Origin: Pseudomonadota bacterium
GTDB taxonomy: Bacteria; Desulfobacterota; Desulfobacteria; Desulfobacterales; RPRI01
Reading direction: 5' to 3'
Assembly: GCA_043825875.1 (NCBI GenBank)
Contig: JBDRRF010000024.1
Span: 1 to 64,000, forward strand
Length of the DNA: 64,000 bases
Shown: positions 15,515 to 62,889 of the stretch, one piece after another
How positions within the stretch are numbered: the first letter of the stretch is position 1
Layout: every line of letters starts with the position of its first letter
Program-made: the position numbers and the translations under genes
Notes under the pieces: generated by a model
Databases searched by the model: none
Told to the model about the DNA's origin: nothing
What the model saw: only the letters and a program-made list of their open reading frames with translations

Positions 15515-15799
15515 ATGGCTTTAACTAAAAATGACATTGTTGCTAGAGTACATGAACTCGGCTTTACCAAGAAAAAATCGGTCGATATCATAGAATCTCT
15601 TCTTATGATAATTAAGGATACTCTTGAAACCGGTGATGATGTATTAATATCCGGATTCGGTAAATTTTGTGTAAAGAAAAAGAGCCAGAGAAGAGGTAGA
15701 AATCCGGCTACAGGTTCCGATTTGATCCTGAGAGGAAGAAGGGTAGTTACTTTCAAATGCTCCGGGAAATTAAGGGATAAAATTAATAAAAACGAGTAG
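15515..15799 (+). CDS. ihfA: Integration host factor alpha subunit
   Basis: MALTKNDI...ISGFGKF...GRNPATG...RRVVTFKCSGKLRDKIN; AGGAGG RBS. Confidence 0.92.
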   Translation: MALTKNDIVARVHELGFTKKKSVDIIESLLMIIKDTLETGDDVLISGFGKFCVKKKSQRRGRNPATGSDLILRGRRVVTFKCSGKLRDKINKNE

Positions 15800-15941
15800 A
15801 GCCAGTTTCAAAACGCCCCATTTTGGCTGATCTTAAGCGTTGGGCTCAAATTTCAATCCTCGAAATACCCAATGTATTACTGCGGTTGAAATTTTCGCCC
15901 GCCTTGAGCTTGACCAAACTGAAACGTTTTGAAAGTGGCTC
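15799..15941 (+). mobile_element. 143-bp hairpin MITE
   Basis: 17-bp terminal inverted repeats; flanks GAGTA/GAATA; its first G completes the ihfA TAG stop. Confidence 0.9.
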
Positions 15942-16045: not shown

Positions 16046-16058
16046 GTATATTTATTTA

Positions 16059-16201
16059 GAGCCAGTTTCAAAACGCCCCATTTTGGCCGATCTTAAGCGT
16101 TGGGCTCAAATTTCAATCCTCGAAATACTCAATGTATTCCTGCGGTTGAAATTTTCGCCCGCCTTGAGCTTGACCAAACTGAAACATTTTGAAAGTGGCT
16201 C
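16059..16201 (+). mobile_element. 143-bp hairpin MITE
   Basis: Terminal inverted repeats plus a perfect 4-bp target duplication TTTA. Confidence 0.92.
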
Positions 16202-17619: not shown

Positions 17620-19173
17620 TTATGCAGTTATTTCTTCACAAAGAGGAAGATATATGGATATTGCGGTTCCTTCTCCTTTATTGCTTATAGCCTCAATCTT
17701 TCCTCCCATGCTTTCAATAAGAGAAAAGCAAACAAACAATCCAAGACCGGTACCCTTACCTGATTCTTTTGTGGTATAGAAAGGATCGAAAATATTGCCT
17801 ATGTCATCCTTGTCAATTCCGGAGCCATTATCAATTACAGAAATTTTTAATGTCTGCATGTTATTAATTGCTTTAGCATCAGCACTGCTGATAACTTCAC
17901 TCTTTATCCGGATTTGTCCTGTCAGTTTATCCTTTGATGAAGAAATCGCATCCGCAGCATTTATAACAAGATTTAAAAAAATCTGTTTTAACTGATTTGG
18001 ATCAGATAATATAATATCATTTTTTGCTTCAAGCAAAAGCTTTAATTTAATACCGGACATAAAAGGCTGATATTTTACAATCTCAGCAATATCCTGTATT
18101 GTTTCATGAGCCCCGGTTTTTGTTTGGTTTATCTCCGAAGGACGGGAAAAATCAAGAAGCTGGCGGATTATAACGTTTATTCTGTTAATTTCGCTTTCAG
18201 CCCTTTCTATATATTCATTTCTTTCATGGTCGGGGATATTCTCCTGCTTTAGCAGATCCAGATAACCTAGTACTATTCCAATCGGATTTCCTATTTCATG
18301 AGCTATCCCGGATGATAATCTGCCCACGGAAGCAAGCTTTTCCGCCCTAATAACGTCTCTTTCAGCTTTTTGTAAATCAGCATTCATCTTCTCAAGAGAT
18401 TGCACATTGGCCAGAAGTTTTTCCTTATCTCCCGAAATTCTTTTCAAAAGCCGGTTTAAAGCTTTTGATAGTTTGTTGAATTCATTTTCTTTGTTGCCAT
18501 GCATGAAAAAGAATTCATCTTCTTCCCGGAATTCATCAGCTCTTTTAAGCATTTGCTGAACAGGTTTTACAGCAATTTTTGAAACAAAATAAAGCCCTAC
18601 AATAGTCAATACAAAAGCATTTACCATTAAATAAGCAATAAGTACTTTCTGGGAGTTTCTTATAGAACTGTAGATATTTTCAAGCTCCATAACAATGCCT
18701 GCCCCTGCCCGGATTTTCCCATCCACGGACAGAGGGGAAGATATCATAAGATAACGATCCTGCATCCACAACACACCCCAGATTGTTCCTGCGTAACTTA
18801 TTGTGTTATCGAGAGAATTAACTGCTCTTTCTGTTGCAATTATTATATCATCGGAAAGCTTGCAATTTGTACCACCGGAATAAAGGAGGTTTAAATTTTT
18901 ATCCTGTACCAGGATGCAGGAAAAGTCCGCTGTTTTTAAATTTTTTTCCAATCCTTTGATGTATTCCGGCTCAATAAAGATACTTTTATTGTCATCAGCT
19001 ATTAAAATATGATTTTCCAAATCGGATAAAATAAGATGCGCTTTAGATATTTCTGATTTAACGAGGCTTTTTTGGGCTGTTATAATCATAACAAAATCTA
19101 CAAGAAACATTGCAACAATTAATAGTATTGCAATACAAAGTGCGATATTCGTTTTTATTCCCTGAAGAGTCAC
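17620..19173 (-). CDS. Membrane sensor histidine kinase
   Basis: Two TM segments, HAMP-like linker, AHEIGNP H-box, N, D/F and G boxes. Confidence 0.93.
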   Translation of the reverse strand: MTLQGIKTNIALCIAILLIVAMFLVDFVMIITAQKSLVKSEISKAHLILSDLENHILIADDNKSIFIEPEYIKGLEKNLKTADFSCILVQDKNLNLLYSGGTNCKLSDDIIIATERAVNSLDNTISYAGTIWGVLWMQDRYLMISSPLSVDGKIRAGAGIVMELENIYSSIRNSQKVLIAYLMVNAFVLTIVGLYFVSKIAVKPVQQMLKRADEFREEDEFFFMHGNKENEFNKLSKALNRLLKRISGDKEKLLANVQSLEKMNADLQKAERDVIRAEKLASVGRLSSGIAHEIGNPIGIVLGYLDLLKQENIPDHERNEYIERAESEINRINVIIRQLLDFSRPSEINQTKTGAHETIQDIAEIVKYQPFMSGIKLKLLLEAKNDIILSDPNQLKQIFLNLVINAADAISSSKDKLTGQIRIKSEVISSADAKAINNMQTLKISVIDNGSGIDKDDIGNIFDPFYTTKESGKGTGLGLFVCFSLIESMGGKIEAISNKGEGTAISIYLPLCEEITA

Positions 19174-19536
19174 TATAAGCTCTGCTGATTATAACTGTTT
19201 GAAGAATCGGTTCTTCTCCTGAATACTTGAACCCTAATTGGAACAACATCTCTTTTGAAGATGATGCAATTATCTTAAATCATTATTACAATATAATTGC
19301 ATATTTTTGCAATAACTAAACGTAAGATTTTAAAAGAATGCCAAATCGATACTTTCTTTACGAAAGATGAAAGCCCGTTATTGCAAAAAGCCTCTTGATA
19401 GATTATATATAATTTCAAAGCAATTGAGATGATTGGTGCTTGTTTAAAAGAATTAAAATAATTTTTATCTTTTCGGATATCATATATTTGTAAGGTTATC
19501 CAGAACAGCTCAATAAATTGTTATCCTACTGAAAAT

Positions 19537-19920
19537 ATGACATATCAAAGTCGTGATAGAAAATATAGACTTAGGAAATTCAGGAAGACGTATGGAAATG
19601 GAGAATTCCAGTTTTTGGGTTTAAATGTTGAACCAGTCCATCAAATTCCTAAAAATATTGAAAATGGGAATGAATTTGATTATTGGGTGACTAATTCATA
19701 TGATCGAATTCTGGTTTCATTTGAAAAGAGTTTGGAAGAAACAATCATTTTTCAGAGAACTGATCCTCAAAGCAACATGCATATAAGATTCAAAACAAAT
19801 ATCAATCGACTTGATGGTTTAGAACTTAAGAAACTCTTTGAACGGATACGACAAATTGGTATTCCTAAATCTATAAAAGGAAAATTTCAATATAGAATAA
19901 GCTATATAAATAATGGATAA
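19537..19920 (+). CDS. Cassette 1 hypothetical protein
   Basis: Bounded by GTTATCC (19495) and complementary GGATAAC (19915), which contains the stop codon. Confidence 0.75.
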   Translation: MTYQSRDRKYRLRKFRKTYGNGEFQFLGLNVEPVHQIPKNIENGNEFDYWVTNSYDRILVSFEKSLEETIIFQRTDPQSNMHIRFKTNINRLDGLELKKLFERIRQIGIPKSIKGKFQYRISYINNG

Positions 19921-19974
19921 CAATTGCATTAAGAGCGACGGCAAAAAGCCGCCGCGGCTTATGCTGACTTATAA
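19915..19974 (+). other. attC site 1 (right-hand GTT mutated to CTT)
   Basis: GGATAAC...GCATTAAGAGCGACGGCAAAAAGCCGCCGCGGCTTATGC...CTTATAA. Confidence 0.75.
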
Positions 19975-20007
19975 AGCCATATTCATGTTAATAACGAGGA
20001 GAAGAAG

Positions 20008-20256
20008 ATGACTTTTAAAAATGCCGAATATTCAAATTATAGTGACATTGTTTTTTACAGGAGGAGATGGTTTTGGGGTCTTGCTATTCTCCTACTTACC
20101 CCAGTCGGTATTTTGATTGGTTTGACCGGAGACGTATATTGCAATCAAAAAGGCCAAATTACTAGCCTCCACAAGGCTAGCCGTATTGTTGTGTGCATTG
20201 GATTTCTTGCATTAATTTTAATTAAATTTGTTGGTCCAGTTTTTGTTAAACGGTAA
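20008..20256 (+). CDS. Cassette 2 small membrane protein
   Basis: Two hydrophobic segments; GGAG RBS. Confidence 0.75.
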   Translation: MTFKNAEYSNYSDIVFYRRRWFWGLAILLLTPVGILIGLTGDVYCNQKGQITSLHKASRIVVCIGFLALILIKFVGPVFVKR

Positions 20257-20258
20257 AT

Positions 20259-20318
20259 ACCCAACATCTTTTTGCACTGGACGCCAAACAGCCAGCGCCA
20301 GTGAAAATGGCGTAACTA
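20259..20318 (+). other. attC site 2 (right-hand GTT mutated to GTA)
   Basis: ACCCAAC...TTTGCACTGGACGC...GCGCCAGTGAAA...GTAACTA with bulged bases. Confidence 0.75.
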
Positions 20319-20336
20319 CAAACAAAGGAAAATGTC

Positions 20337-20849
20337 TTGAAAAAGAAATGCTACATATTAGCAGGGCCTAATGGGGCAGGTAAAACGACATTTGCAAATG
20401 AATTTCTCCCTATTGAGGCGGAATGCTTGAATTTTATCAATGCAGATTTGATTGCTCAAGGCCTATCGCCTTTTCAACCGGAAAAAATGGGCGTAGAAGC
20501 CGGCAGATTAATGATTAATCACATTTCTGAATGTGTTAGAACAAATGAATCATTTGCGTTTGAAACAACGCTTAGCGGAAGAGGGTATGTGCAAAAAATA
20601 AATGACTGGAAAAAACGAGACTACGAAATTATCATCTATTTCTTAAAACTCCCTTCTGTTGAATTTGCATTGGAGAGGGTTCGCCTAAGAGTCTCAAGAG
20701 GAGGCCATGACGTTCCGGAAGAAACTGTAAGAAGGAGATTTGAAAGAAGTTGGAAAAACTTTAACATACTTTACAAACCTCTGGCAGATGCATGGATTGT
20801 GTTTGACACTTCCGGAAAAACGCCAGTTGTAATAGACGAATCGGAGTAA
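20337..20849 (+). CDS. Zeta-toxin-like P-loop protein (COG4185-type), cassette 3
   Basis: AGPNGAGKTT, INADLIA, FETTLSG, RVSRGGHDVP. Confidence 0.88.
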   Translation: MKKKCYILAGPNGAGKTTFANEFLPIEAECLNFINADLIAQGLSPFQPEKMGVEAGRLMINHISECVRTNESFAFETTLSGRGYVQKINDWKKRDYEIIIYFLKLPSVEFALERVRLRVSRGGHDVPEETVRRRFERSWKNFNILYKPLADAWIVFDTSGKTPVVIDESE

Positions 20850-20854
20850 GTACT

Positions 20855-21037
20855 ATGAAAAAGCACAACAAATATACAATTATTGGTCTGAGAGCTTTGC
20901 AGCGTGCAGCAGAAAAAGTCGCTGAAGATGCAAGGAAAAATAATTATAAGATTCCAGTATGGATAAATGGTCGCATCGAATATGAGATACCGGGACAGAT
21001 CACCGAACAATCAGTTTCAGCCGATAAAGACGGCTGA
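20855..21037 (+). CDS. Small partner protein (putative antitoxin), cassette 3
   Basis: Starts 5 nt after the zeta-like gene; ALQRAAEKVAEDAR...IPVWING pattern; reads into attC 3. Confidence 0.7.
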   Translation: MKKHNKYTIIGLRALQRAAEKVAEDARKNNYKIPVWINGRIEYEIPGQITEQSVSADKDG

Positions 21038-21163
21038 AACTGATTGTTGAGCCTGTCGAAAAACTCTAAAATCTGGATTTTAGTATTTGTAACTATCTGA
21101 TATTATAGAATGTAAAATGACCAAATTAACCGTTTTGGGACTTTTTCGACAGTCTCGTTCGCA
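21002..21163 (+). other. attC site 3, interrupted by a MITE
   Basis: Removing 21049-21159 restores a 20-bp perfect palindrome CGAACAATCAGTTTCAGCCG/CGGCTGAAACTGATTGTTCG. Confidence 0.75.
21049..21156. mobile_element. 108-bp non-autonomous IS-like element (MITE)
   Basis: Terminal inverted repeats GAGCCTGTCGAAAAACTC / GACTTTTTCGACAGTCTC (16/18); GTT on both sides. Confidence 0.85.
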
Positions 21164-21186
21164 GACCGAATCTGAGATTTAAAAAC

Positions 21187-21510
21187 ATGAAGAAAGCATA
21201 TTTAGGCAAGTGGCATATCAGAAAAATGGATCTATGGGATAAAGAGTTTATCGACCTTGACGGCCCAGGTTACCTATCCGTAAAGAGAGGCGGCGAAGGA
21301 ATACTCCAATTTGGAGCTGTAAGGGCTACTGTAGATTATGAAGTAGAATTAATCGGAGATGTTGAGCGTTTAGAGTTCTCTTTTGAAGGCGAGGATGAAG
21401 GCGATCCAGTGTGCGGTCGGGGTTGGGCGCAAGTTGATAGCCAGAATATGACAGGCAAGATCTATTTCCACTATGGTGATGAATCGGGTTTTGTTGCTGA
21501 AAAGGAGTAG
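21187..21510 (+). CDS. Cassette 4 hypothetical beta-barrel-like protein
   Basis: GKWHIRKMDLWD...FSFEGEDEGDPVCGRGWA; lies between attC sites. Confidence 0.8.
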   Translation: MKKAYLGKWHIRKMDLWDKEFIDLDGPGYLSVKRGGEGILQFGAVRATVDYEVELIGDVERLEFSFEGEDEGDPVCGRGWAQVDSQNMTGKIYFHYGDESGFVAEKE

Positions 21511-21521
21511 GTGAGCGCTGG

Positions 21522-21624
21522 CGCTAACATTTTAGTGGAGTAGACGGGGAAAAGAGATACCCTTTTTCGTCAACACCGTAGGTATTCGACCTTTTTTGGC
21601 CCGCTGCGCACCAATTCGTTAGAA
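21522..21624 (+). other. attC site 4
   Basis: CGCTAAC...GTGGAGTAGACGGG...CCCGCTGCGCAC...GTTAGAA. Confidence 0.75.
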
Positions 21625-21632
21625 GGTGAGAC

Positions 21633-22139
21633 ATGATCAGGCTTTACACGGCAATCATATGTTTGGTATTCCCAGTTTTCTTTTCTTGTGCTTGGTTTGA
21701 TGCTGGAATGAAAATCAAGAGCACAAGCTTAGAACTGCCATGTGGACATAAGACCGAGCAATGTATTCTTCTAAAGAAACTGATCGGACCATGTGAGGGA
21801 AAAGATTTCGAAACCACCCAAAAAGTGCGCGACAATTACAATGTTGGGCGAACAGCTTATGTGGTTTCCAACTGGAAGGACTTTCTCCAATGCCAGAACG
21901 ATCTCTTCCGAGCCCCCTTTTTTGAAAAAGAAATCACGAAGGAATTCTTCGAGGACAACTCGTTAGGGGTCGTTTTTGCTGTAACAGCAGGATCTGTGTA
22001 TCACAAAAATGAAAAAGTGTCGATTCGTGACGGCAAATGTATATTCAGCTACGAAACGTGGTCGGAGAAGGCTGAAGGTCCTGTGCCAGCATGTATCTGG
22101 GAATCGCTTTACGTGTTTAAATTGAAGAAGGATTTCTAA
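21633..22139 (+). CDS. Cassette 5 putative lipoprotein
   Basis: Hydrophobic N-terminus ending FFSC; cassette ends GTTAGAA/TTCTAAC are perfectly complementary. Confidence 0.78.
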   Translation: MIRLYTAIICLVFPVFFSCAWFDAGMKIKSTSLELPCGHKTEQCILLKKLIGPCEGKDFETTQKVRDNYNVGRTAYVVSNWKDFLQCQNDLFRAPFFEKEITKEFFEDNSLGVVFAVTAGSVYHKNEKVSIRDGKCIFSYETWSEKAEGPVPACIWESLYVFKLKKDF

Positions 22140-22196
22140 CGAGGCGGTGCACTGGATCGCCGAAACAGCTGGTTCCCAGTGACATAGATGTTCTGT
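22134..22196 (+). other. attC site 5
   Basis: TTCTAAC...GTGCACTGGA...CCCAGTGAC...GTTCTGT. Confidence 0.8.
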
Positions 22197-22254
22197 GCAA
22201 TAAAAGAGTGGTTATTTAAATTTCATTTTCAAAAAACCGGAAATCATAAAAAAT

Positions 22255-22446
22255 ATGAGTAGAAGCATTCATAAAACAGTAAAAGGGGTTTTTGGGAATA
22301 AATCCCAGAGCCAAATTAACAAAATGATTAATGAAGATGACCCTGATGTTGAAGAGTTAGCTCAAAAATCCTTTTACAAATCGGAACAAAAAAATAAAAG
22401 AAAGAATAAGAAAGTTCATCAAGAAATTAATGATGAAGAAATATGA
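22255..22446 (+). CDS. Cassette 6 small charged protein
   Basis: MSRSIHKT...; cassette ends GTTCTGTGCAAT/ATTGCACAGAAC complementary over 12 bp. Confidence 0.7.
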   Translation: MSRSIHKTVKGVFGNKSQSQINKMINEDDPDVEELAQKSFYKSEQKNKRKNKKVHQEINDEEI

Positions 22447-22451
22447 ATTGC

Positions 22452-22583
22452 ACAGAACAAAACGCTGAACTTGGACCGGGCTATACGTTGCAGTGTTTGT
22501 AAGCTGTTTTTTATCAATCGTTTTAGCTATCTGGCCCGTGTCGCTATGCGCCGCCCGGCCCGTTGACTCCTCGATCTGTAGGC
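22452..22583 (+). other. attC site 6 (long; right end degenerate)
   Basis: ACAGAAC...GGACCGGGC...GCCCGGCCC; no intact right-hand GTT. Confidence 0.65.
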
Positions 22584-22587
22584 ATAA

Positions 22588-22956
22588 ATGAATAAAATTG
22601 CACGTAAAATTGATAAATATTCATTTAAGATTTTAATCTATGTTTTTATCGCGGCTGTGATTTTCAGTATCATTTTTCGCGCATATTGCCATTTTTATTA
22701 CGCCCCCGAATATTACGGTTCGTGGAAAAATATTTTTACGGCTCCTATAATTGACATAAATTATATTAAAGACTTTTTCAGAAGCTCAATAAACATAATT
22801 TTTTTATCAATCATTATTGTTTCTCCCTTTTTGACTTATGGAGTCACAGCTATTTGCTCAAAGATAGTTGAAAATGAGGATGCGCAAAAATTAAAAGAAG
22901 AATTAAAGAATCATTTTAATAAATCAAATAAAAGGAAGAAAAAGAAGAAAATATAA
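22588..22956 (+). CDS. Cassette 7 membrane protein with a basic tail
   Basis: Two TM segments; stop lies within ATATAAC. Confidence 0.72.
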   Translation: MNKIARKIDKYSFKILIYVFIAAVIFSIIFRAYCHFYYAPEYYGSWKNIFTAPIIDINYIKDFFRSSINIIFLSIIIVSPFLTYGVTAICSKIVENEDAQKLKEELKNHFNKSNKRKKKKKI

Positions 22957-23013
22957 CAATGCTGCTTTACAAGGATGTCTCGTAACTTGCCACCTGTGAT
23001 CAGCCTGTTGAAC
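22951..23013 (+). other. attC site 7
   Basis: ATATAAC...TTACAAGGATG...CACCTGTGA...GTTGAAC. Confidence 0.65.
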
Positions 23014-23026
23014 TATAGCCGAACTG

Positions 23027-23932
23027 ATGGAAGAAATAGAACCCAAAGTATATGAAATTGAAACGAGTTTTAGAAAGCTGACTGCAATTAGCAGTTGGAT
23101 TTCTCTCGCATTCCCTATTTTATTTATCGCATTACCATTTGTTCCCGACAACGGACCCACAATAAATCCAATTGTTATATATTCTCTTTCGATTTTGGGA
23201 GCATTATTCTTTTTGTTCATTACCTGTTATTTATTTAGGATAAAAAAGCAGCTTCCATTCCGTGCTATTTCAATTGATAACGATGGTATATGGCCATTAC
23301 ACAAGGAAAAGAAAGAATCATTGATCTCATGGAAGTCAATTGCCAATATAAAAGAACGCCCAGCTATGCAACGATTAGATCTTATTGGGCAAGATGGATC
23401 GCTCCTGCTTAAAATTGAATATCAACTTGAAAACTTCGATAGACTTCGTAATCTCCTGATTGATAGAATTGACATTAAACAATATCAGTATCTCCCGATA
23501 ATTTTTTCCAAAAAAATAATTTACCATCTGTTTTACTTCATATGTATTTTGGGGCTTTTATCTCTTGGTTGGCATGTGGGACAAAAAAGGCCTGTATTTG
23601 GTTATGGTGCTGCGGCGATTTTGGCAATTGGGATTTGTTATGAGTATTTTACTACAATTTGGTGTTTGTCGATAGATCATCACGAATTATCCTACAAGTA
23701 CCCTTTACTGTCACGGCATGTTCAATATCGGGACGTTATCAAAGTAAATTTGTCTGACACGTTTGTTAATGGCGCAAGGCTTCCTGAAGTTTATGTAGAT
23801 TTAAAAAATGACACTAAACCAATAAAGCTTGAAAAGCTAGGAGTGGATGCTGTGATCTTGTATAAAACTTTAAACAGGATATTTGATATAAAATCAGCCG
23901 ACTTAAGAAATGTGGATCAAGTCTACGCATGA
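23027..23932 (+). CDS. Cassette 8 membrane protein with two tandem 2TM + PH-like modules
   Basis: Repeated pattern of a TM pair followed by ISIDNDGI/LSIDHHEL...ISWKSI/VQYRDV. Confidence 0.75.
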   Translation: MEEIEPKVYEIETSFRKLTAISSWISLAFPILFIALPFVPDNGPTINPIVIYSLSILGALFFLFITCYLFRIKKQLPFRAISIDNDGIWPLHKEKKESLISWKSIANIKERPAMQRLDLIGQDGSLLLKIEYQLENFDRLRNLLIDRIDIKQYQYLPIIFSKKIIYHLFYFICILGLLSLGWHVGQKRPVFGYGAAAILAIGICYEYFTTIWCLSIDHHELSYKYPLLSRHVQYRDVIKVNLSDTFVNGARLPEVYVDLKNDTKPIKLEKLGVDAVILYKTLNRIFDIKSADLRNVDQVYA

Positions 23933-23970
23933 CCTTTAGCATATTCAATAATTGGTCAAATATTGACTTG

Positions 23971-24024
23971 ACCCAACTTTTTGGGACGCGCAAAGACCGC
24001 GCGCCCCAAAGCAGCGCGTTCGGT
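23971..24024 (+). other. attC site 8
   Basis: ACCCAAC-TTTTTGGGACGCGCAAAGACCGCGCGCCCCAAA...GTTCGGT. Confidence 0.7.
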
Positions 24025-24031
24025 TTTTGAA

Positions 24032-24577
24032 ATGGAAATAATAATATACCGTCATGCCAAGCCGAAGGTTTCTGACAAGGAAATAATTTCTGGTCGCGAT
24101 TTTCCACAGTGGGTTCAAAGGTATGATGAATCAGGGATTTATAACAACAAGATTGTATGTACAAAGGAAGATGTTGTTTATACTAGTAATCTTTTAAGAA
24201 GTATAGAAACAGGACATTTAATTGGAAAAAGGATTATTAAAAACCCGCTAATAATGGAAGCAGGAATCCCATTGATTCGCTTCCCAGCAGTTCGCCTCAA
24301 GGCAAAGAAATGGTTGTTTGTTTCGAGATTGTTGTGGATACTGGGATTCAAAACGGAGTGCGAATCATTGGCGGATGTAAAAATAAGAGTAATAAAAGCA
24401 GTTGATAGCTTCGAGTCCCAGCTTTCCGGAAATGAACGAGTTGTAATTGTTGGGCATGGTTTCACCAATTGGTTGATAAAAAGGGAACTATTGTATCGCG
24501 GCTGGTTTTTAAAGCAAAAAACTTCGAACAAAAGTTTCTTAAGCAAAATGATATTTGAAACCAAATCTGTTGTTTAA
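24032..24577 (+). CDS. Histidine phosphatase (phosphoglycerate-mutase-like), cassette 9
   Basis: IIIYRHAKP, TSNLLRSIET, IVGHG; start placed at the ATG after attC 8. Confidence 0.85.
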   Translation: MEIIIYRHAKPKVSDKEIISGRDFPQWVQRYDESGIYNNKIVCTKEDVVYTSNLLRSIETGHLIGKRIIKNPLIMEAGIPLIRFPAVRLKAKKWLFVSRLLWILGFKTECESLADVKIRVIKAVDSFESQLSGNERVVIVGHGFTNWLIKRELLYRGWFLKQKTSNKSFLSKMIFETKSVV

Positions 24578-24672
24578 CTCAGACGGCTGTTTCCGGTGTG
24601 TTTTGAAAAACTGTGCTGTTAAGATATTTCTTACTTACCAGCAGGCCATCGCTGCTTAACTCGCTGTTATAT
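24560..24672 (+). other. attC site 9 (left end degenerate)
   Basis: AAACCAAAT partly complements the cassette start GTTCGGTTT; TTAACTCAGACGGC/GCCATCGCTGCTTAAC; GTTATAT. Confidence 0.6.
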
Positions 24673-24697
24673 CAACTTAAAATAGGATAAGTAAAAT

Positions 24698-25057
24698 ATG
24701 ATTAAAATAGAGAAACCTACAATCATTAAGGCTGCAGGAAATAAACCAAAAATTATTGAAGAATTTATCGGACGTGTTAATTCCGGGACGAACGATCTAA
24801 GCATTGCAAAAATGAAGAGCCCTTCAGGATGGATAGAACCGGGCCAGAAACCAGAGTTCGATGAATATACAATTGTTCTTAAAGGAATGTTACGGGTGAC
24901 GACCAAAGAAAATACTGCTGACATAAATGCAGGAGAAGCCATTATTGTACCTTCTGGAAAATGGGTTCAATACAGCACACCGGGTTCTGAAGGCGCTGAA
25001 TATATAGCAGTATGTTTACCAGCGTTTTCTCCTGAAACTGTTCATCGTGACGAATAA
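24698..25057 (+). CDS. Cupin-domain protein, cassette 10
   Basis: GWIEPGQKPEFDEYTIVLKG...AGEAIIV...WVQYSTP...AEYIAVCLPAFSP. Confidence 0.88.
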   Translation: MIKIEKPTIIKAAGNKPKIIEEFIGRVNSGTNDLSIAKMKSPSGWIEPGQKPEFDEYTIVLKGMLRVTTKENTADINAGEAIIVPSGKWVQYSTPGSEGAEYIAVCLPAFSPETVHRDE

Positions 25058-25058
25058 A

Positions 25059-25122
25059 TTATAAATTGAAATAGTGATAGGGCCACGAAACAAACCGTGC
25101 GCCCCGTAGTAATTTATTATAA
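25059..25122 (+). other. Highly degenerate attC-like site 10
   Basis: TTATAAA...GGGCCACG...CGTGCGCCC...ATTATAA; both core triplets altered. Confidence 0.4.
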
Positions 25123-25145
25123 TTGAAAAAGAAAAGGAGAAAATC

Positions 25146-25970
25146 GTGAAAAACTGTATTAACTATGTTGTTTTTGTTGCTATACTTGCCTTTGCGATAC
25201 CTTTGTGCGTATCGGCCGAACCCTTGAAACTTTACGCTGCAGGAAGTTTAAAGGCAGCTCTTGGCGATGTGGTGGCTTCTTATGTAAAAACCTATAACAC
25301 AGAAGTAACCACAAAATTTGGTCCCAGCGGCCTTTTGAGAAAAGCTATTGAAGAAGGTGAAAATCCCGATGTTTTCGCTTCTGCGAATATGAAGCATCCT
25401 GAAAAACTTGCTTCTGCGGGATGGGGAAGTCCGGTAGTGCTGTTTGCCCGTAATACGCTTTGTGCATTGGCACAGCCTGATGTAGCGATATCAACGGATA
25501 ATCTGTATGATACCCTGATGGACAAGAACGTTCGGGTGGGTACCTCCACACCAAAGGCAGACCCAAGCGGAGACTATGCATGGGCACTTTTTCAAAAGGC
25601 GGATAAAATAAAGGAGGGGAGTTTCGCAGCTCTTTCCGGAAAAGCTCTCCAACTCACCGGAGGGCCGGACAGTGCCAAGGCTCCCGAAGGACGTAATAAA
25701 TACGGATGGGTGATGAGCGGGAAAAAGGCTGATGTCTTCCTTACTTACTGCACCAATGCGGTATTGGCTAAAAAAGAAGTGCCGGATCTTAAGATTATCA
25801 AAATACCTCAAGAGCTTTCTGTAGGAGCCGATTACGGGCTTATTGTCAGAAGTGGCGCATCTTCTGAAGCATGGCGGCTTGCCATGTATATTTTGTCGCC
25901 TGAGGGTCAAAAGATATTAAGAGAATATGGATTTGAAGCTTCGGCGATTCAGAGAGAAATAGAGAGGTAG
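25146..25970 (+). CDS. ModA-like periplasmic oxyanion-binding protein (orphan)
   Basis: Signal peptide; YAAGSL, FGPSGLL, DVFASAN, STPKADPSGDYA; no modBC adjacent. Confidence 0.85.
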   Translation: MKNCINYVVFVAILAFAIPLCVSAEPLKLYAAGSLKAALGDVVASYVKTYNTEVTTKFGPSGLLRKAIEEGENPDVFASANMKHPEKLASAGWGSPVVLFARNTLCALAQPDVAISTDNLYDTLMDKNVRVGTSTPKADPSGDYAWALFQKADKIKEGSFAALSGKALQLTGGPDSAKAPEGRNKYGWVMSGKKADVFLTYCTNAVLAKKEVPDLKIIKIPQELSVGADYGLIVRSGASSEAWRLAMYILSPEGQKILREYGFEASAIQREIER

Positions 25971-25975
25971 CTCAT

Positions 25976-27202
25976 ATGAGCAAGGAATTTCAAATCGAAC
26001 GTCACAAGAAATTGTTGGAGGAAAAGACCAAGCAGGCTAAACGAGTAGTTTTCGGAGGGCTTTTGTTCGGCATCTTTATACTTGTAAATGTGCTTACGCC
26101 TTACATAAATGATTTGAAAGAGATAAATAAAGTCGAGCTGGAAATTAAAAAGTATAATTCAGAGATTCGGGAAATCGAAAAGACTTTACAGCCACTCAAT
26201 GAACTATCAAAAATACTTGATAGTATACAGAAGTTAGTTGCAAAAAGACCTTGGGATGTTGAAACAAATAAACTTATTAACAAGTTCCGGGAGATGAATA
26301 TCAGAGGGGGAGTAAATTGGAATGATTATCAGGCTGAGGCTGATGCTACAATCAATTCTGTTGCTGCTTTGGTAAATAATGGTGTGATTGAGCCTTTAAA
26401 TAAATTTCTTTCCGACTCTCCTTCTTCAAAAAATCTTATCCCTGAACTTGTCGAAGAGTTAAAAACTCTTCCTGAGACTGTAGACACATGGGTAAGTGAA
26501 AATAAAGGAAAAAGATGGTATCTAACCATTGAAATGAAGACAGCTCAAATTGATAGATTGTCAAATACTCTTGGCAATAAACTTAAATCGGTCTCAAGGA
26601 CGATTGTCCGTGAAAAACCAAACTTGATCAACCGTCAGGCAAATATAAAGGCAAGCTTGGAAAAATTGAGAAACAACCCGGAGTATCGGGACAAAGAAGA
26701 GAGATTGGAAAAACTACGGTCTCAAATGGAAAAGGTCCTGCCTGCCTGGCTTAAGGGTATGATATTTGTTGAACAGATGGTGCAGATTTTTCCATTTATT
26801 ATCGTTATTCTGACAGCATATGTCTTAATTATCGCTTCAGGAGTTGCTTCGCATTATAGATTCCTTGCACGGGAACTTAATTTTGGTGAAGAAGGTTATA
26901 ACGATCCAAGCTTTTCTTCTTTATGGACACTAATATACCGGGGAAGACTCGGCACACTATTGACAGTAAGTGTTTATATCATTTTTATCCTGATTATGTG
27001 GTTTTTCTTTGAGTCCGGAAGAGAAATACTTGCAGGCTGGTTAGAAATCGAAAAAGCCTGGTTTATAAACACTGATAATTTTCCGGTGATTGTATGGCTT
27101 TCCAGAATGTTGCTGGCCTCACTTATTGCTTATACGGCTATATACCCTTATTACCAGAAACGAAAAAGCGATGCGGTGCATACAACATTGGAAAAGAAGT
27201 AA
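25976..27202 (+). CDS. Hypothetical membrane protein with a long coiled-coil domain
   Basis: N-terminal TM, helical charged middle, about three C-terminal TM segments. Confidence 0.75.
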   Translation: MSKEFQIERHKKLLEEKTKQAKRVVFGGLLFGIFILVNVLTPYINDLKEINKVELEIKKYNSEIREIEKTLQPLNELSKILDSIQKLVAKRPWDVETNKLINKFREMNIRGGVNWNDYQAEADATINSVAALVNNGVIEPLNKFLSDSPSSKNLIPELVEELKTLPETVDTWVSENKGKRWYLTIEMKTAQIDRLSNTLGNKLKSVSRTIVREKPNLINRQANIKASLEKLRNNPEYRDKEERLEKLRSQMEKVLPAWLKGMIFVEQMVQIFPFIIVILTAYVLIIASGVASHYRFLARELNFGEEGYNDPSFSSLWTLIYRGRLGTLLTVSVYIIFILIMWFFFESGREILAGWLEIEKAWFINTDNFPVIVWLSRMLLASLIAYTAIYPYYQKRKSDAVHTTLEKK

Positions 27203-27262
27203 TGTAAGTAAATGAAGATTTTTCCAGGAATTTTAAGAGGCTGTGCAGAAGGAGCTATAGAC

Positions 27263-28036
27263 ATGAAAACATCATTTGCGGTTTCAACCGATGGAACACG
27301 CATTGCCTATGACATTAGCGGAGCCGGAGAGTCTATAGTATTGTTGCACGGAGGTTTGCATACCCGGCAGCACTGGCATAATGCGGGTTATGTTGAGCGA
27401 CTTAATAAAGAGTTTAAAGTTATTACTATCGATATCAGAGGCAATGGAGAAAGCGACAAGTATCTTGACCCGGCTTATTATACAACTAAAAAGCATTGCG
27501 AAGATATTCTGGCTGTAGCCGCTGAATGCGGCATCAAGAGCTTTACGGTCTGGGGTTATTCCTATGGCGCAAATATCGGGCGCTATCTGGCCGCCAAATC
27601 GGATTTGGTGGATAAGTTTATCATTTTAGGATACACTTTTGGGCCCGGCGCTTCAGGAACTTTTCGCCAATTTATTCCTGATTTCCATGACCGCTGGGTG
27701 CCAATTTTACAAGCACAGGCAGATAAAACTTTAGATGTTCAAACATTATCAGGAAAAGATCAGGAATTTCTTAAAAGCGGGGAGATACCGATTATACTGG
27801 CGTGGCTTAGCCCAATTCTTGATTGGCCACCGGTTGAACCTGCTGATTTGCTTTGTCCTACACTTTGGCTTGCAGGTTCAAAAAATGATGATGTGATGGC
27901 TAACATGAAAGAATATGAAGCAAATATTGAATCAACAAAAGTCAAAATTAAGGTTTTAGAAGGATTGGATCACTGGCATGAATTTGCAGAGGTTGATCGT
28001 GTCTTATCTGTTGTACTACCTTTTATTAAGTCGTAG
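27263..28036 (+). CDS. Alpha/beta hydrolase
   Basis: LLHGG, DIRGNGES, GYSYG nucleophile elbow, C-terminal DH; AGGAG RBS before 27263. Confidence 0.9.
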   Translation: MKTSFAVSTDGTRIAYDISGAGESIVLLHGGLHTRQHWHNAGYVERLNKEFKVITIDIRGNGESDKYLDPAYYTTKKHCEDILAVAAECGIKSFTVWGYSYGANIGRYLAAKSDLVDKFIILGYTFGPGASGTFRQFIPDFHDRWVPILQAQADKTLDVQTLSGKDQEFLKSGEIPIILAWLSPILDWPPVEPADLLCPTLWLAGSKNDDVMANMKEYEANIESTKVKIKVLEGLDHWHEFAEVDRVLSVVLPFIKS

Positions 28037-28254
28037 AATTTTTTTTGGTGAAACATCCGGCAAATTCATGACTGATCTGAACTCAGGCTTTTTATTTTCT
28101 CTTATAAAGATGGTTAGAAACCTTTACCGGTTTAGAAAGTGTGATTTTTGGAAAACAAGTACTGCAAATAATAACAACGGTATTTTATAGAATAAGTATC
28201 ACCACAGTTATTATTTGCATAAATAAATTATAGATAAATATTAACTATTCTATA

Positions 28255-28722
28255 TTATCGCTGTATCTCCTTAACCGAGAGTATTGCCTCGACAATCTTG
28301 GCATAACCGGTGCAGCGACACATATTTCCTGAAATGGCATCCTTTGCCTCATCCTTTGTAGGATGCGGATTACTATCCAGCAAGGCTTTACCAGACATAA
28401 TCATTCCCGGAGTGCAATAACCGCATTGGACCGCCCCCTTCTCATGAAAGGCCTTCTGAAGCGGGTGAAGTTTGCCATTCTGGGCAAGACCTTCAATGGT
28501 TTGGATATCCTTTCCCTTGGCTGAACTTGCTAAAACAAGACAGGAAAACACTGGTTTTCCATTCAAAAGAACAGTGCAGGCGCCGCAGGAACCCTCGTTA
28601 CAGGCCTCTTTTGTTCCCGTCAAGTGAAGCTCATCCCGTAATACTTCCAAAAGTGTCTGATTTGGTGCTGCCGCCACCTCATAGACTTCCCCGTTCACTT
28701 TTAATTCTACCAGTCTTTTCAT
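28255..28722 (-). CDS. Molybdenum hydroxylase family 2x[2Fe-2S] subunit (HcrC-like)
   Basis: CNEGSCGACTV, QCGYCTPG, CRCTGY. Confidence 0.93.
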   Translation of the reverse strand: MKRLVELKVNGEVYEVAAAPNQTLLEVLRDELHLTGTKEACNEGSCGACTVLLNGKPVFSCLVLASSAKGKDIQTIEGLAQNGKLHPLQKAFHEKGAVQCGYCTPGMIMSGKALLDSNPHPTKDEAKDAISGNMCRCTGYAKIVEAILSVKEIQR

Positions 28723-60738: not shown

Positions 60739-60927
60739 GCATATTTATAAGGGTTGTAATTTATAAATAATTTTATTTTATTCTGTTATAATAGGTTGTT
60801 ATCATTTATAGGATTGTGATAATTCTATTCCGATTACATCAATCTGCAATCTGAACATTCCGACAATTAAAATACATACTTATATCCTTGACCGTACAGA
60901 GCTAAAATTATAAATTGAAAAAGGCCT

Positions 60928-62889
60928 ATGGAAAATAACAAACCTCAAATACTTGCTCCTGCGGGAAATAAAGCTTCTTTTCTTGCTGCAATTGCTGCCG
61001 GGGCCGATGCTGTTTACTGCGGGCTTAAAGACTTTTCTGCCCGCATGGAGGCAAAGAATTTTACGATTAGTGAGCTTGCTCCTCTTACAAGACTTGCTCA
61101 TGATAATGGAGTAAAAGTATATGTTGCCATAAATTCTCTTTTAAAACATGAAGATCTTTTACTTGCCGCAAATCTTATAGCGCAGCTATCGAAGCAGGTT
61201 AAGCCCGATGGCCTCATAATACAGGATCTTGCACTTATTGATCTTGCAAAACAAACGGGATTTAAAGGTGAGCTTCATCTTTCTACGCTTTCCAATGTAA
61301 CTTTTCCTGCGGCATTAAAGCTTGTACGCGAAAAGCTTGATATAGACCGGGTTGTCATACCAAGAGAACTTTCTATTGATGAAATTAAATCTCTTGCCGC
61401 AGCTTGCCCTGAAAAGTTATCTCTTGAACTCTTTATACATGGAGCACTTTGCTACGGAATTTCAGGCAGATGTTACTGGAGCAGTTATTTCGGCGGCAAA
61501 AGCGGGCTACGCGGAAGATGTGTGCAGCCATGCCGCAGGATTTATACCCAGAAAGGCAAATCAGGCAGGTTCTTTTCCTGTATTGATCTTAGCCTGGATG
61601 TTTTAGCAAAGGTTTTACTGCAAGTTTCCAAAATAAGCGTATGGAAAATCGAAGGAAGAAAAAAAGGCCCTCACTATGTTTATTATACAGTAAGCGCTTA
61701 TAAAATATTAAGAGATGAGGGACGTGACCCGGTACAGAAAAAAAATGCTCTTGAACTGCTTTCTCTTTCTCTTGGAAGATCCGGCAGCCACTACAATTTT
61801 CTCCCGCAGAGGCCGCATAATCCCGTAAGCGCAAACAATCAGACAGGCTCAGGCCTTCTTATAGGTAAAATTAGCGGGCCTGGGCAAAACCCCTGGCTTT
61901 CGCCTAATGAAGAGCTTTTGCCCGGAGATCTTCTTCGAATTGGTTATGAAGATGAAGCTTCGCACAATATATTGCGCGTGGGCAAATTTGTCCCCAAAAG
62001 AGGGCGCTTATACATAAAACCGGCAGCAGGCAAAAAATCCGCAACGGGATCTTTTGTGTTTCTTACAGACAGACGTGAAAAAGCTCTTGAAGATATGATA
62101 TCCGGGCTTGATAGTAAAATAAAAGAAGTATCTGTGACAAATGAGCCGGAATTATCATTTACCCCAAAATTGCCAAAAAGGTTTAAAGAGAAAAAATCCA
62201 ATTATGAAGTTAATGTTTACAGGGATCATGCGAAATTTAATAAAGGTGTGAAAACCGGTTTATGGTTTAATCCTGAATATGTTAAAGAAAAAAATATTGA
62301 TTACTCCTGTTACTGGTGGCTTCCGCCCGTAGTATGGCCTGATGAAGAAAAACAAGTTAAAGAAAATATTGATTTTTTACTTTCAAATGGCAGTAAAAAT
62401 TTTGTTTTAAATGTTCCCTGGCAGATTGCTTTTTTTAGTGGCATGAAAAATCTTAATATCTGGGCCGGGCCATTTTGCAATATAGCAAATGTTCTTGCAT
62501 TAAAAGCAATACACTCTCTTGGATTTTCAGGCGCAATTGCAAGTCCTGAACTGGGGCGCGATGATTATCTTAATCTGATACAAAACAGTCCGCTTCCGTT
62601 AGGGATGGTTATTTCAGGAAACTGGCCTTTATCTATATCAAGAACGCTTTCCGACCAGGTTCAAACCGATTTTTCATTTATCAGCCCGAAAGGCGAGCAT
62701 GCCTGGGTAAAAAAATACGGCTCAAACTTCTGGGTATATCCAAACTGGAGTATAGATCTGACGGATAAAAAAGAAGAACTTCTTAAGGCCGGATACAGTA
62801 TGTTTGTTAACCTTGTAGAACCATTGCCTGCTGATATAAGAATGAAAAAAAGAGAAGGCAAATGGAACTGGAAAATCGGATTGACTTAG
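60928..62889 (+). CDS. Peptidase U32 family Fe-S protein (RlhA/TrhP-like RNA hydroxylase)
   Basis: ILAPAG, GADAVY, ELFIHGALCYGISGRC...RGRCVQPCR, KIEGR. Confidence 0.88.
   Translation: MENNKPQILAPAGNKASFLAAIAAGADAVYCGLKDFSARMEAKNFTISELAPLTRLAHDNGVKVYVAINSLLKHEDLLLAANLIAQLSKQVKPDGLIIQDLALIDLAKQTGFKGELHLSTLSNVTFPAALKLVREKLDIDRVVIPRELSIDEIKSLAAACPEKLSLELFIHGALCYGISGRCYWSSYFGGKSGLRGRCVQPCRRIYTQKGKSGRFFSCIDLSLDVLAKVLLQVSKISVWKIEGRKKGPHYVYYTVSAYKILRDEGRDPVQKKNALELLSLSLGRSGSHYNFLPQRPHNPVSANNQTGSGLLIGKISGPGQNPWLSPNEELLPGDLLRIGYEDEASHNILRVGKFVPKRGRLYIKPAAGKKSATGSFVFLTDRREKALEDMISGLDSKIKEVSVTNEPELSFTPKLPKRFKEKKSNYEVNVYRDHAKFNKGVKTGLWFNPEYVKEKNIDYSCYWWLPPVVWPDEEKQVKENIDFLLSNGSKNFVLNVPWQIAFFSGMKNLNIWAGPFCNIANVLALKAIHSLGFSGAIASPELGRDDYLNLIQNSPLPLGMVISGNWPLSISRTLSDQVQTDFSFISPKGEHAWVKKYGSNFWVYPNWSIDLTDKKEELLKAGYSMFVNLVEPLPADIRMKKREGKWNWKIGLT

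Follow-up and report, generated by a model that had tools for sequence, protein, structure and literature searches.

Integron arrays are major platforms for gene capture, and few elements are known to target attC. One such set of insertion sequences is the IS1111-attC group, reportedly the subject of a 2008 paper by Tetu and Holmes. Its members (ISKpn4, ISPst6) are specialised on the attC sites of cassettes, and they use a DEDD transposase guided by a seekRNA and have subterminal repeats (excerpt of PMC11187229). Group IIC-attC introns are also mobile and take the attC hairpin and its conserved GTT/AAC as target, but they are retroelements that usually enter the bottom strand at R'', opposite to the cassettes (excerpt of PMC7923331). 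In the little-studied IS1182 family, IS1272 and TnSha1 of staphylococci have a DDE transposase and terminal inverted repeats, and insert into hairpins; IS1272 strikes terminators or other inverted repeats whatever their sequence, removes a portion of the stem and leaves the target unduplicated (excerpts of PMC4923244 and PMC5678879).

IS1182-type MITEs and IHF sites in MITEs are each known separately (excerpts of PMC11578231; PMC2229807, PMC10969869). MITEPye1 of Paracoccus yeei has terminal repeats of the IS1182 type and is presumed to be mobilised in trans, but it makes 4-bp duplications at intergenic sites, and the excerpt of PMC11578231 mentions no attC link. The Correia element of Neisseria is a MITE with an internal IHF site, demonstrated by gel shift (here we have a consensus match only) and proposed to aid transposition; its ends are unrelated and the excerpts of PMC2229807 and PMC10969869 describe no cassette targeting. 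Acinetobacter MITEs are associated with class 1 integrons, but they flank and move whole integrons, with no attC insertion in the excerpt of PMC10969869. Our literature search, with ISfinder, most subscription journals and supplements outside its scope, returned no paper on an IS1182 or DDE element that targets attC, and the excerpts of PMC8876359, PMC4889954 and PMC3971601 contain no IS1182-attC link.

The locus analysed here lies in a window of 64,000 nucleotides (the whole stretch of DNA that was analysed) from the genome that we label G000. It carries a short element at an attC site, for which we consider the following explanation probable: an IS1182 MITE is moved in trans with the assistance of IHF, and its targeting of the attC GTT is set by the transposase clade and works probably via the folded hairpin. 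The features of the locus are:

19537..22197, + strand: first part of a cassette array that lacks an integrase, most of its attC sites being degenerate (weaker limits by eye)
20337..21037, + strand: upstream cassette, with a gene for a 170-aa zeta-toxin-like/AAA_33 ATPase (20337-20849) and a 60-aa ORF (20855-21037)
21002..21048, + strand: attC, with R'' ACCGAAC at 21002-21008, left arm to 21023, a 7-nt loop, and right arm at 21031-21048
21046..21048, + strand: upstream GTT, target duplication and attC crossover triplet
21049..21156, + strand: MITE of 108 bp without ORF and with IS1182-type ends (from its ends and copies elsewhere)
21049..21063, + strand: left terminal inverted repeat (15/15 bp identical to the left end of the 1,843-bp IS at G000:C68:60622)
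21090..21102, - strand: IHF-binding consensus, 12/13 (TATCAGATAGTTA), predicted from consensus
21142..21156, - strand: right terminal inverted repeat (from the inverted-repeat listing and the end-motif match)
21157..21163, + strand: downstream GTT duplication and original R' GTTCGCA, where the next cassette begins
21187..21510, + strand: downstream cassette gene, 107 aa, without Pfam or NCBIfam match

An earlier note, made from the letters of the window alone, had described a 108-bp miniature IS placed exactly at the attC GTT crossover, and this is what we find: the element at 21049-21156 stands between GTT at 21046-21048 and GTT at 21157-21159, at the R' box. The DDE-style terminal inverted repeats that it had read also hold up. 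The motif GAGNCTGTCGAAAAA, common to an IS1182 partner, matches both ends with 0 mismatches (21049-21063 on the + strand, 21142-21156 on the - strand), and the two terminal 15-mers show a single difference, at position 4. Deleting the element and one GTT does leave a 20-bp perfect palindrome, as the 18-bp perfect arms (21006-21023 and 21031-21048) grow by CG, and the duplication does regenerate GTT. The new R' box, GTTGAGC (21046-21052), made of GTT and the first four bases of the MITE, fits the consensus GTTRRRY (excerpt of PMC7923331). An empty allele was seen for none of the sites, so the GTT duplication is deduced from the flanks. The contigs of the probable source run are identical to the window over 19000-21156 and 21130-28400, and are non-independent data. 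The element is confirmed as a non-autonomous MITE of the IS1182 family: it is short and non-coding, it shares its terminal repeats with an IS, it is flanked by a target duplication and it exists in several copies.

Compared with IS1272, the present lineage retains the hairpin, duplicates 3 bp and uses one fixed attC triplet; a stem-loop replacement of the IS1272 type is excluded by the intact hairpin with GTT on both sides. Compared with the IS1111-attC group, it has a DDE enzyme, true terminal repeats and a 3-bp duplication, and membership of that group is excluded by a DDE/IS1182 partner with terminal repeats; no RNA family match of the Rfam type was found in the IS. Unlike the group IIC-attC introns, the element is DNA-based and sits at R', and the IS is oriented with the cassettes. 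A group II intron identity of the MITE is also rejected: it has no ORF, and the sequence that holds it (L007) has no Rfam match.

The target has the R'' (...AAC) and R' (GTT...) boxes and the paired L arms of an attC, directly behind a cassette ORF. Its hairpin folds at -20.5 kcal/mol (z -9.3; equally stable shuffles, 0/200), and it has an attC score (described below) of 17.9 versus 9.5 for the background 99th percentile. The stem is mirror-perfect over 18 bp, without extrahelical bases or an unpaired central spacer; the site is a derived attC, not the canonical form. Removal of extrahelical bases brought recombination 50-fold down in one attC and had no notable effect in two others, with the top strand favoured (excerpt of PMC5027507); because of these results, the window attC may continue to recombine, with weaker strand choice. 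Recombination joints were looked for in the contigs of three sequencing runs and none turned up, a negative that does not speak against recombination. A mirror run of more than 5 bp is present in 1 of 64 element ends preceded by GTT, the window site alone, so we reject the idea that transposition itself corrects the arm. The arm and loop of the window site recur at a sister site, G000:C89:32305, where one base pair is compensated and the right arm is bulged; the same holds for sister sites in other contigs. Because of these bulged right arms, the right arm in the window has most likely been mirror-corrected to match the left one.

The 3' end of the 60-aa ORF extends through the attC left arm. 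Several of its 19 homologues end in the left arm ...GAACAA...CAGC(C/T)GAC, and a complete attC, read by eye, stands behind at least two of them (L191, L199). As an aside, the reading frame of this gene (20855-21037; L185-L203) takes in the left arm of attC, which many homologues retain despite a lost right arm.

The array is made of short co-oriented ORFs, and the target site ends a two-gene cassette. The attC sites are at ~19915-19974, 20259-20320, 21002-21163, 21522-21624 and 22134-22197, and the one behind the 107-aa gene (~21522-21624, limits by eye) is weak, with a fold z of -1.9. No intI was found on the contig of the window. Integrase-like genes occur on four other contigs of G000, 47-100% identical to the protein on contig C68, which passes TIGR02249 (437 versus a cut-off of 265); the three besides the C68 one are at C51:167791-168771 (88% identical to it), C107:649-1617 (48%) and C79:66182-67099 (47%). 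A leader ahead of the first cassette (window 19300-19520), with stretches 74-88% similar to it at about a dozen other places in G000, could drive the array.

The earlier note had suggested a BLAST search of the genome for further copies and an autonomous partner, and both are there. The search of G000 gives three further copies of the MITE (C68:66472, C51:120103 and a 3' remnant at C57:51551) that are 84-94% identical; a copy in G011 is 89% identical. The flanks are ATT/GTT at C68, GTT/TTT at C51 and -/GTT at C57, and the remaining intact copies in the genome, whose sites the same note had wished to see tabulated, are on attC-like GTT sites. At C68, a group II intron divides the upstream attC GTT as GT-intron-T, which suggests that the MITE arrived before the intron and that the regenerated site was still an intron target. 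This intron (G000:C68, about 64705-66470; L001:12706-14471) lies on the top strand between the GT and T of the attC R', in cassette direction, and its RT (374 aa) looks internally deleted; for IIC-attC introns the bottom strand at R'' is usual and a top-strand case is called unusual (excerpt of PMC7923331).

The partner is a full IS of 1,843 bp (G000:C68:60622-62464) with the same ends as the MITE and a single ORF between its terminal inverted repeats (60622, 62464); no internal match between MITE and IS was found, and only the ends are in common. It stands as GTT-IS-GTTAG on an attC about 3 kb from intI, within the intI-linked array. The transposase (517 aa, 60740-62293) has DUF772 and DDE_Tnp_1_6, and scores 300.8 bits against the NCBIfam IS1182 model NF033551, with a cut-off of 270. 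The IS5 and ISNCY models stay far under their cut-offs; thus, from the label "IS1182/IS5-like" in the earlier note, IS1182 is kept and IS5 is dropped. Residues D142, D307 and E466, which we take by analogy to be the DDE triad, are invariant in 13/13 aligned transposases (the 13-row alignment leaves out L024 and L025, with internal stops). The structure prediction (pLDDT 53, pTM 0.30) was too poor for a fold search, and a sequence search for a solved relative found none. A second MITE, of 158 bp (G000:C109:61629-61786, minus strand; L006), stands as GTT-element-GTTAG at an attC, and its ends, GAGCCTGTAGAATAAG, resemble an IS of clade B, introduced below (L041). Remnants of the IS1182 lineage are present at G000:C57:55556-55721 and C88:4141-4245.

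Relatives of the IS that are 73-96% identical have GTT before 10/10 left ends and after 15/15 right ends found (18 genome loci); the same 18 loci include one 54% relative with GCT, and two without visible ends. A search across the phylum was positive for 21/401 genomes and brought in remoter elements whose ends are almost identical. In a quick tree of 30 proteins, three clades are supported. Clade A (14 rows) is all GTT; clade B has 5 GTT rows and 2 unlabelled ones, the latter with GTT right flanks on later inspection; and clade C (7 rows) has GCT or TGC. Their branching is unsupported at the base of the tree, so one origin and two origins of attC targeting are not distinguished. In full elements with both ends, the transposase gene is always directed away from the hairpin, along the cassettes. 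The lineage is found in Desulfobacterota and in records labelled Spirochaetota, Planctomycetota, Myxococcota, Bathyarchaeota and Pseudoalteromonas, and the Pseudoalteromonas element (41% identity) has GTT on either side, behind an attC-like arm. In a clinical plasmid set, 3/72,556 records match at ~41% identity, all from marine Alteromonadales and with no IS name given. Positions 1-120 of L017 read IS right end, GTT, left end of a full copy, a junction that can be a tandem insertion, a circle junction or an assembly collapse.

How attC-like are the targets? We used an attC score that combines arm profiles with a hairpin term, in place of a fixed-geometry rule that overlooked most sites and a hairpin-only score that was too insensitive. 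It is home-made and trained on 34 rule-picked uninterrupted sites of G000, about 9 of which look false and 22 of which pass leave-one-out. A site passes above the 99th percentile (9.5) of 1,440 background GTT; the tandem junction L017 and the intron-split C68 copy are left out of the scoring, and L035/L036 are duplicates of L021/L022. By this measure 10/11 IS of clade A, 2/6 of clade B and 0/8 of clade C (the non-GTT IS) pass, where kin and copies, being non-independent, inflate these and the following target counts as well as those for IHF. All four left junctions scored for the close MITEs and the 158-bp one exceed the 95th percentile, two of them also the 99th. Of 2,801 intergenic positions in G000 that have the local motif, only 71 are attC-like, so chance and selection are an insufficient explanation.

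The MITE family as a whole is not confined to attC. There is a MITE match in 15/401 genomes, and the flank table holds 36 MITEs in 14 genomes, where 18/23 of the GTT-type and 0/13 of the others pass. As an example, all 11 MITEs in G378 follow GTT in one orientation, and 10 pass, and all 9 in G444 are at GCT. For five genomes, the integrase search was completed before the flanks were looked at: G378, G208 and G188, with an integrase over the cut-off, have 16/16 GTT-type copies (14 pass), and G444 and G260, without one over the cut-off, have 0/11. The MITE target follows the resident clade, with GCT in G346 (clade C IS) and GTT-type targets in G175, G239 and G302 (clade B pieces). A metagenome scan for both MITE ends 96-122 bp apart gave at least 120 matches, with loci given for 80. 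Among these matches listed, 15/80 have GTT or AAC at a flank and 65/80 have other flanks; thus, most family members land elsewhere, and attC targeting is not the trait of the MITE for which the earlier note took it. The non-GTT flanks among the matches listed are mostly true 3-bp duplications (GCT/AGC, TCA/TGA, GGA/TCC) and pass in 0/121 cases, and 3/14 GTT-type MITEs pass. Non-GTT targets have a symmetric GAT...ATC consensus on both sides, with T/A at 11 bases, which is absent from GTT targets. As judged from sequence comparison, target choice belongs to the transposase clade and not to the MITE.

The targeting of attC by the lineage is a bias, not an absolute rule. MITEs in G455 and G431 are at GTT without attC, and another copy, found in a source-run contig (30 upstream bases visible; organism inferred from equal depth) is at GTT in a short hairpin-like sequence behind an Rhs-associated gene, which is not an attC. 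A short hairpin repeat is found at G000:C74:2324 and C96:4076 behind small genes beside Rhs-type repeats, and a variant of it was apparently struck by the MITE in the source-run contig.

The core of the element is AT-rich, and the hexamers that the earlier note had pointed to are located at 21101, 21106 and 21113. Its suggestion that this core might give the next cassette a promoter is unsupported: 20900-21300 has no sigma-70 pair (best forward match, 8/12). The core appears to read better as an IHF site than as a promoter. The IHF consensus WATCAANNNNTTR (quoted in PMC3281130) is perfect in the C68 copy and in 49/78 distinct MITEs (shuffles, mean 1.1 and maximum 4), and within one mismatch in 70/78 (shuffle mean 16.6), both counts being inflated by kinship; MITEs with ends of the clade B type have a poorer fit. 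In the window copy, 41 bp separate the predicted site from the left end and 54 bp from the right one. MITE lengths fall at 97-99 bp (5), 106-111 (56), 113 (1) and 118-119 (16), and the offsets of the consensus from the ends are 54/41 (108-bp), 54/52 (119-bp) and 44/42 (one 99-bp element). A phased bend would call for just such steps, of 10-11 bp in one arm or the other. An IHF-alpha-like protein, under the curated cut-off, is encoded at window 15515-15799.

That the MITE is retained because it brings the following cassette a promoter is, in our judgment, very improbable. Three sister copies do have TTGACA-15 nt-TA(T/C)TAT facing the cassette (11/12), and insertion sequences and IIC-attC introns can supply outward promoters (excerpt of PMC8876359). 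But the 15-nt spacer falls short of the 16-18 range, the -35 is gone from the window copy (best 8/12), 0/15 other GTT-type MITEs are above 9/12, and no promoter turned up when the window stretch and the C68 copy were scanned.

We propose that the MITE has an IHF site at its centre and an end for transposase binding on each side, that a DDE transposase like the 517-aa one (G000:C68:60740-62293) would mobilise it in trans, and that IHF would bend the short DNA such that the ends can meet. The transposase would make a 3-bp staggered cut at the GTT of the attC R', in a single orientation, and repair would duplicate GTT, as the flanks suggest. Two clades would target the attC GTT, and their sister clade GCT or TGC within a double-stranded consensus that is roughly symmetric. 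The attC clades would probably read the 3' foot of the extruded hairpin and a few local bases; the chances are about even that they do so rather than reading sequence alone. IntI crosses over at G/TT, so the element would head the downstream cassette and the hairpin would retain a consensus R'. Insertion would then spare both the hairpin and the G/TT crossover, in a target that is low-cost, intergenic and repeated, and recombination would presumably continue at the occupied attC. The earlier note had the MITE ride with the next cassette; the geometry implies it, yet a downstream flank that recurs after a second, different upstream site was seen in 0/39 junctions. For the four loci that include integrase sequence, a look at attI beside intI revealed no element.

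The rival closest to our explanation keeps the same element and partner, and has the transposase read only the double-stranded right arm of attC (about GSTGA-N6-CGTT-R), with the hairpin unneeded. The sister clade does employ an extended double-stranded consensus, T is favoured in both target classes at the position 11 bases ahead of the triplet (62% and 73%), four loci (L041, L057, L042, L058) have no detectable left arm, and insertion is confined to one side of a hairpin that has two-fold symmetry. We nevertheless find this doubtful, as no position in the GTT flanks carries more than 1 bit of information, by itself too little to pick ~70 sites among thousands. The absent left arms may be decay after insertion, and the right arm in the window mirrors the left one yet was struck, if the mirror predates the insertion. 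That there is no targeting at all, with random insertions into short GTT and survivors in harmless cassette spacers, is scarcely credible. Cassette arrays do tolerate insertions (IS are present in 12% of CALINs and 23% of integrons, excerpt of PMC4889954) and some GTT-type copies are off attC. But the four scored left junctions all exceed the 95th percentile, against the 71/2,801 motif sites of G000, 10/11 copies in G378 exceed the 99th, and position and orientation are fixed to the base; this rival is largely refuted by the counts.

Could the integron integrase itself do the inserting? The element might excise as a circle with GTT at the joint, whose G/TT IntI would recombine with attC or, in a milder form, attC-bound IntI might recruit the transposase. 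Circle insertion would also be expected to give GTT-element-GTT in one orientation, the insertion point is the exact IntI crossover triplet with a left end that regenerates GTTRRRY, L017 has the right end-GTT-left end junction, and GTT-type MITEs are in the three integrase-positive genomes of the five. However, the same ends and MITE bodies occur with many 3-bp duplications (GCT, TCA, GGA, CCA and others), as a DDE staggered cut predicts, GTT-type insertions outside attC occur, and L017 is explicable by tandem insertion or assembly collapse. We consider insertion by or with IntI improbable. Returning to the trans-moved MITE, its strongest form is possible, and we hold it only tentatively: the DDE lineage would recognise the folded (or integrase-bound) attC by structure and free of RNA, a third route to attC, and would move a minimal IHF-looped cargo of ~100 bp and whole-helical-turn length, sent to attC or to a plain DNA consensus solely according to the sister transposase at hand.

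A DDE lineage on attC changes how cassette arrays are to be annotated, as a hairpin may be parted from its original R' with a usable crossover presumably left behind. Sister clades that seek attC or sequence and have near-identical ends make target recognition in the IS1182 family directly testable and, if the strongest form of our explanation is true, form a natural enzyme pair for dissecting the switch from sequence to structure recognition. Moreover, the phased predicted IHF site offers a concrete explanation for how a 108-bp element could transpose, and in that strongest form DNA might be loaded at cassette heads without disabling the cassettes.

Other repeats of similar kind are seen in the same genome. 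The contig ends of G000 at C10, C12, C51, C52 and C53 share an identical repeat, with a ...TTTTCGACAAAC end and an IHF-like core resembling that of the MITE, which is probably another IS1182-type element that breaks the assembly. Two palindromic repeats of 145 bp, 97% identical, lie behind the IHF-alpha-like gene (window 15797-15941 and 16057-16201), and ends like theirs, GAGCC(T/A)GTTT(C/A)AAAACG, recur on many contigs as another MITE-like family.
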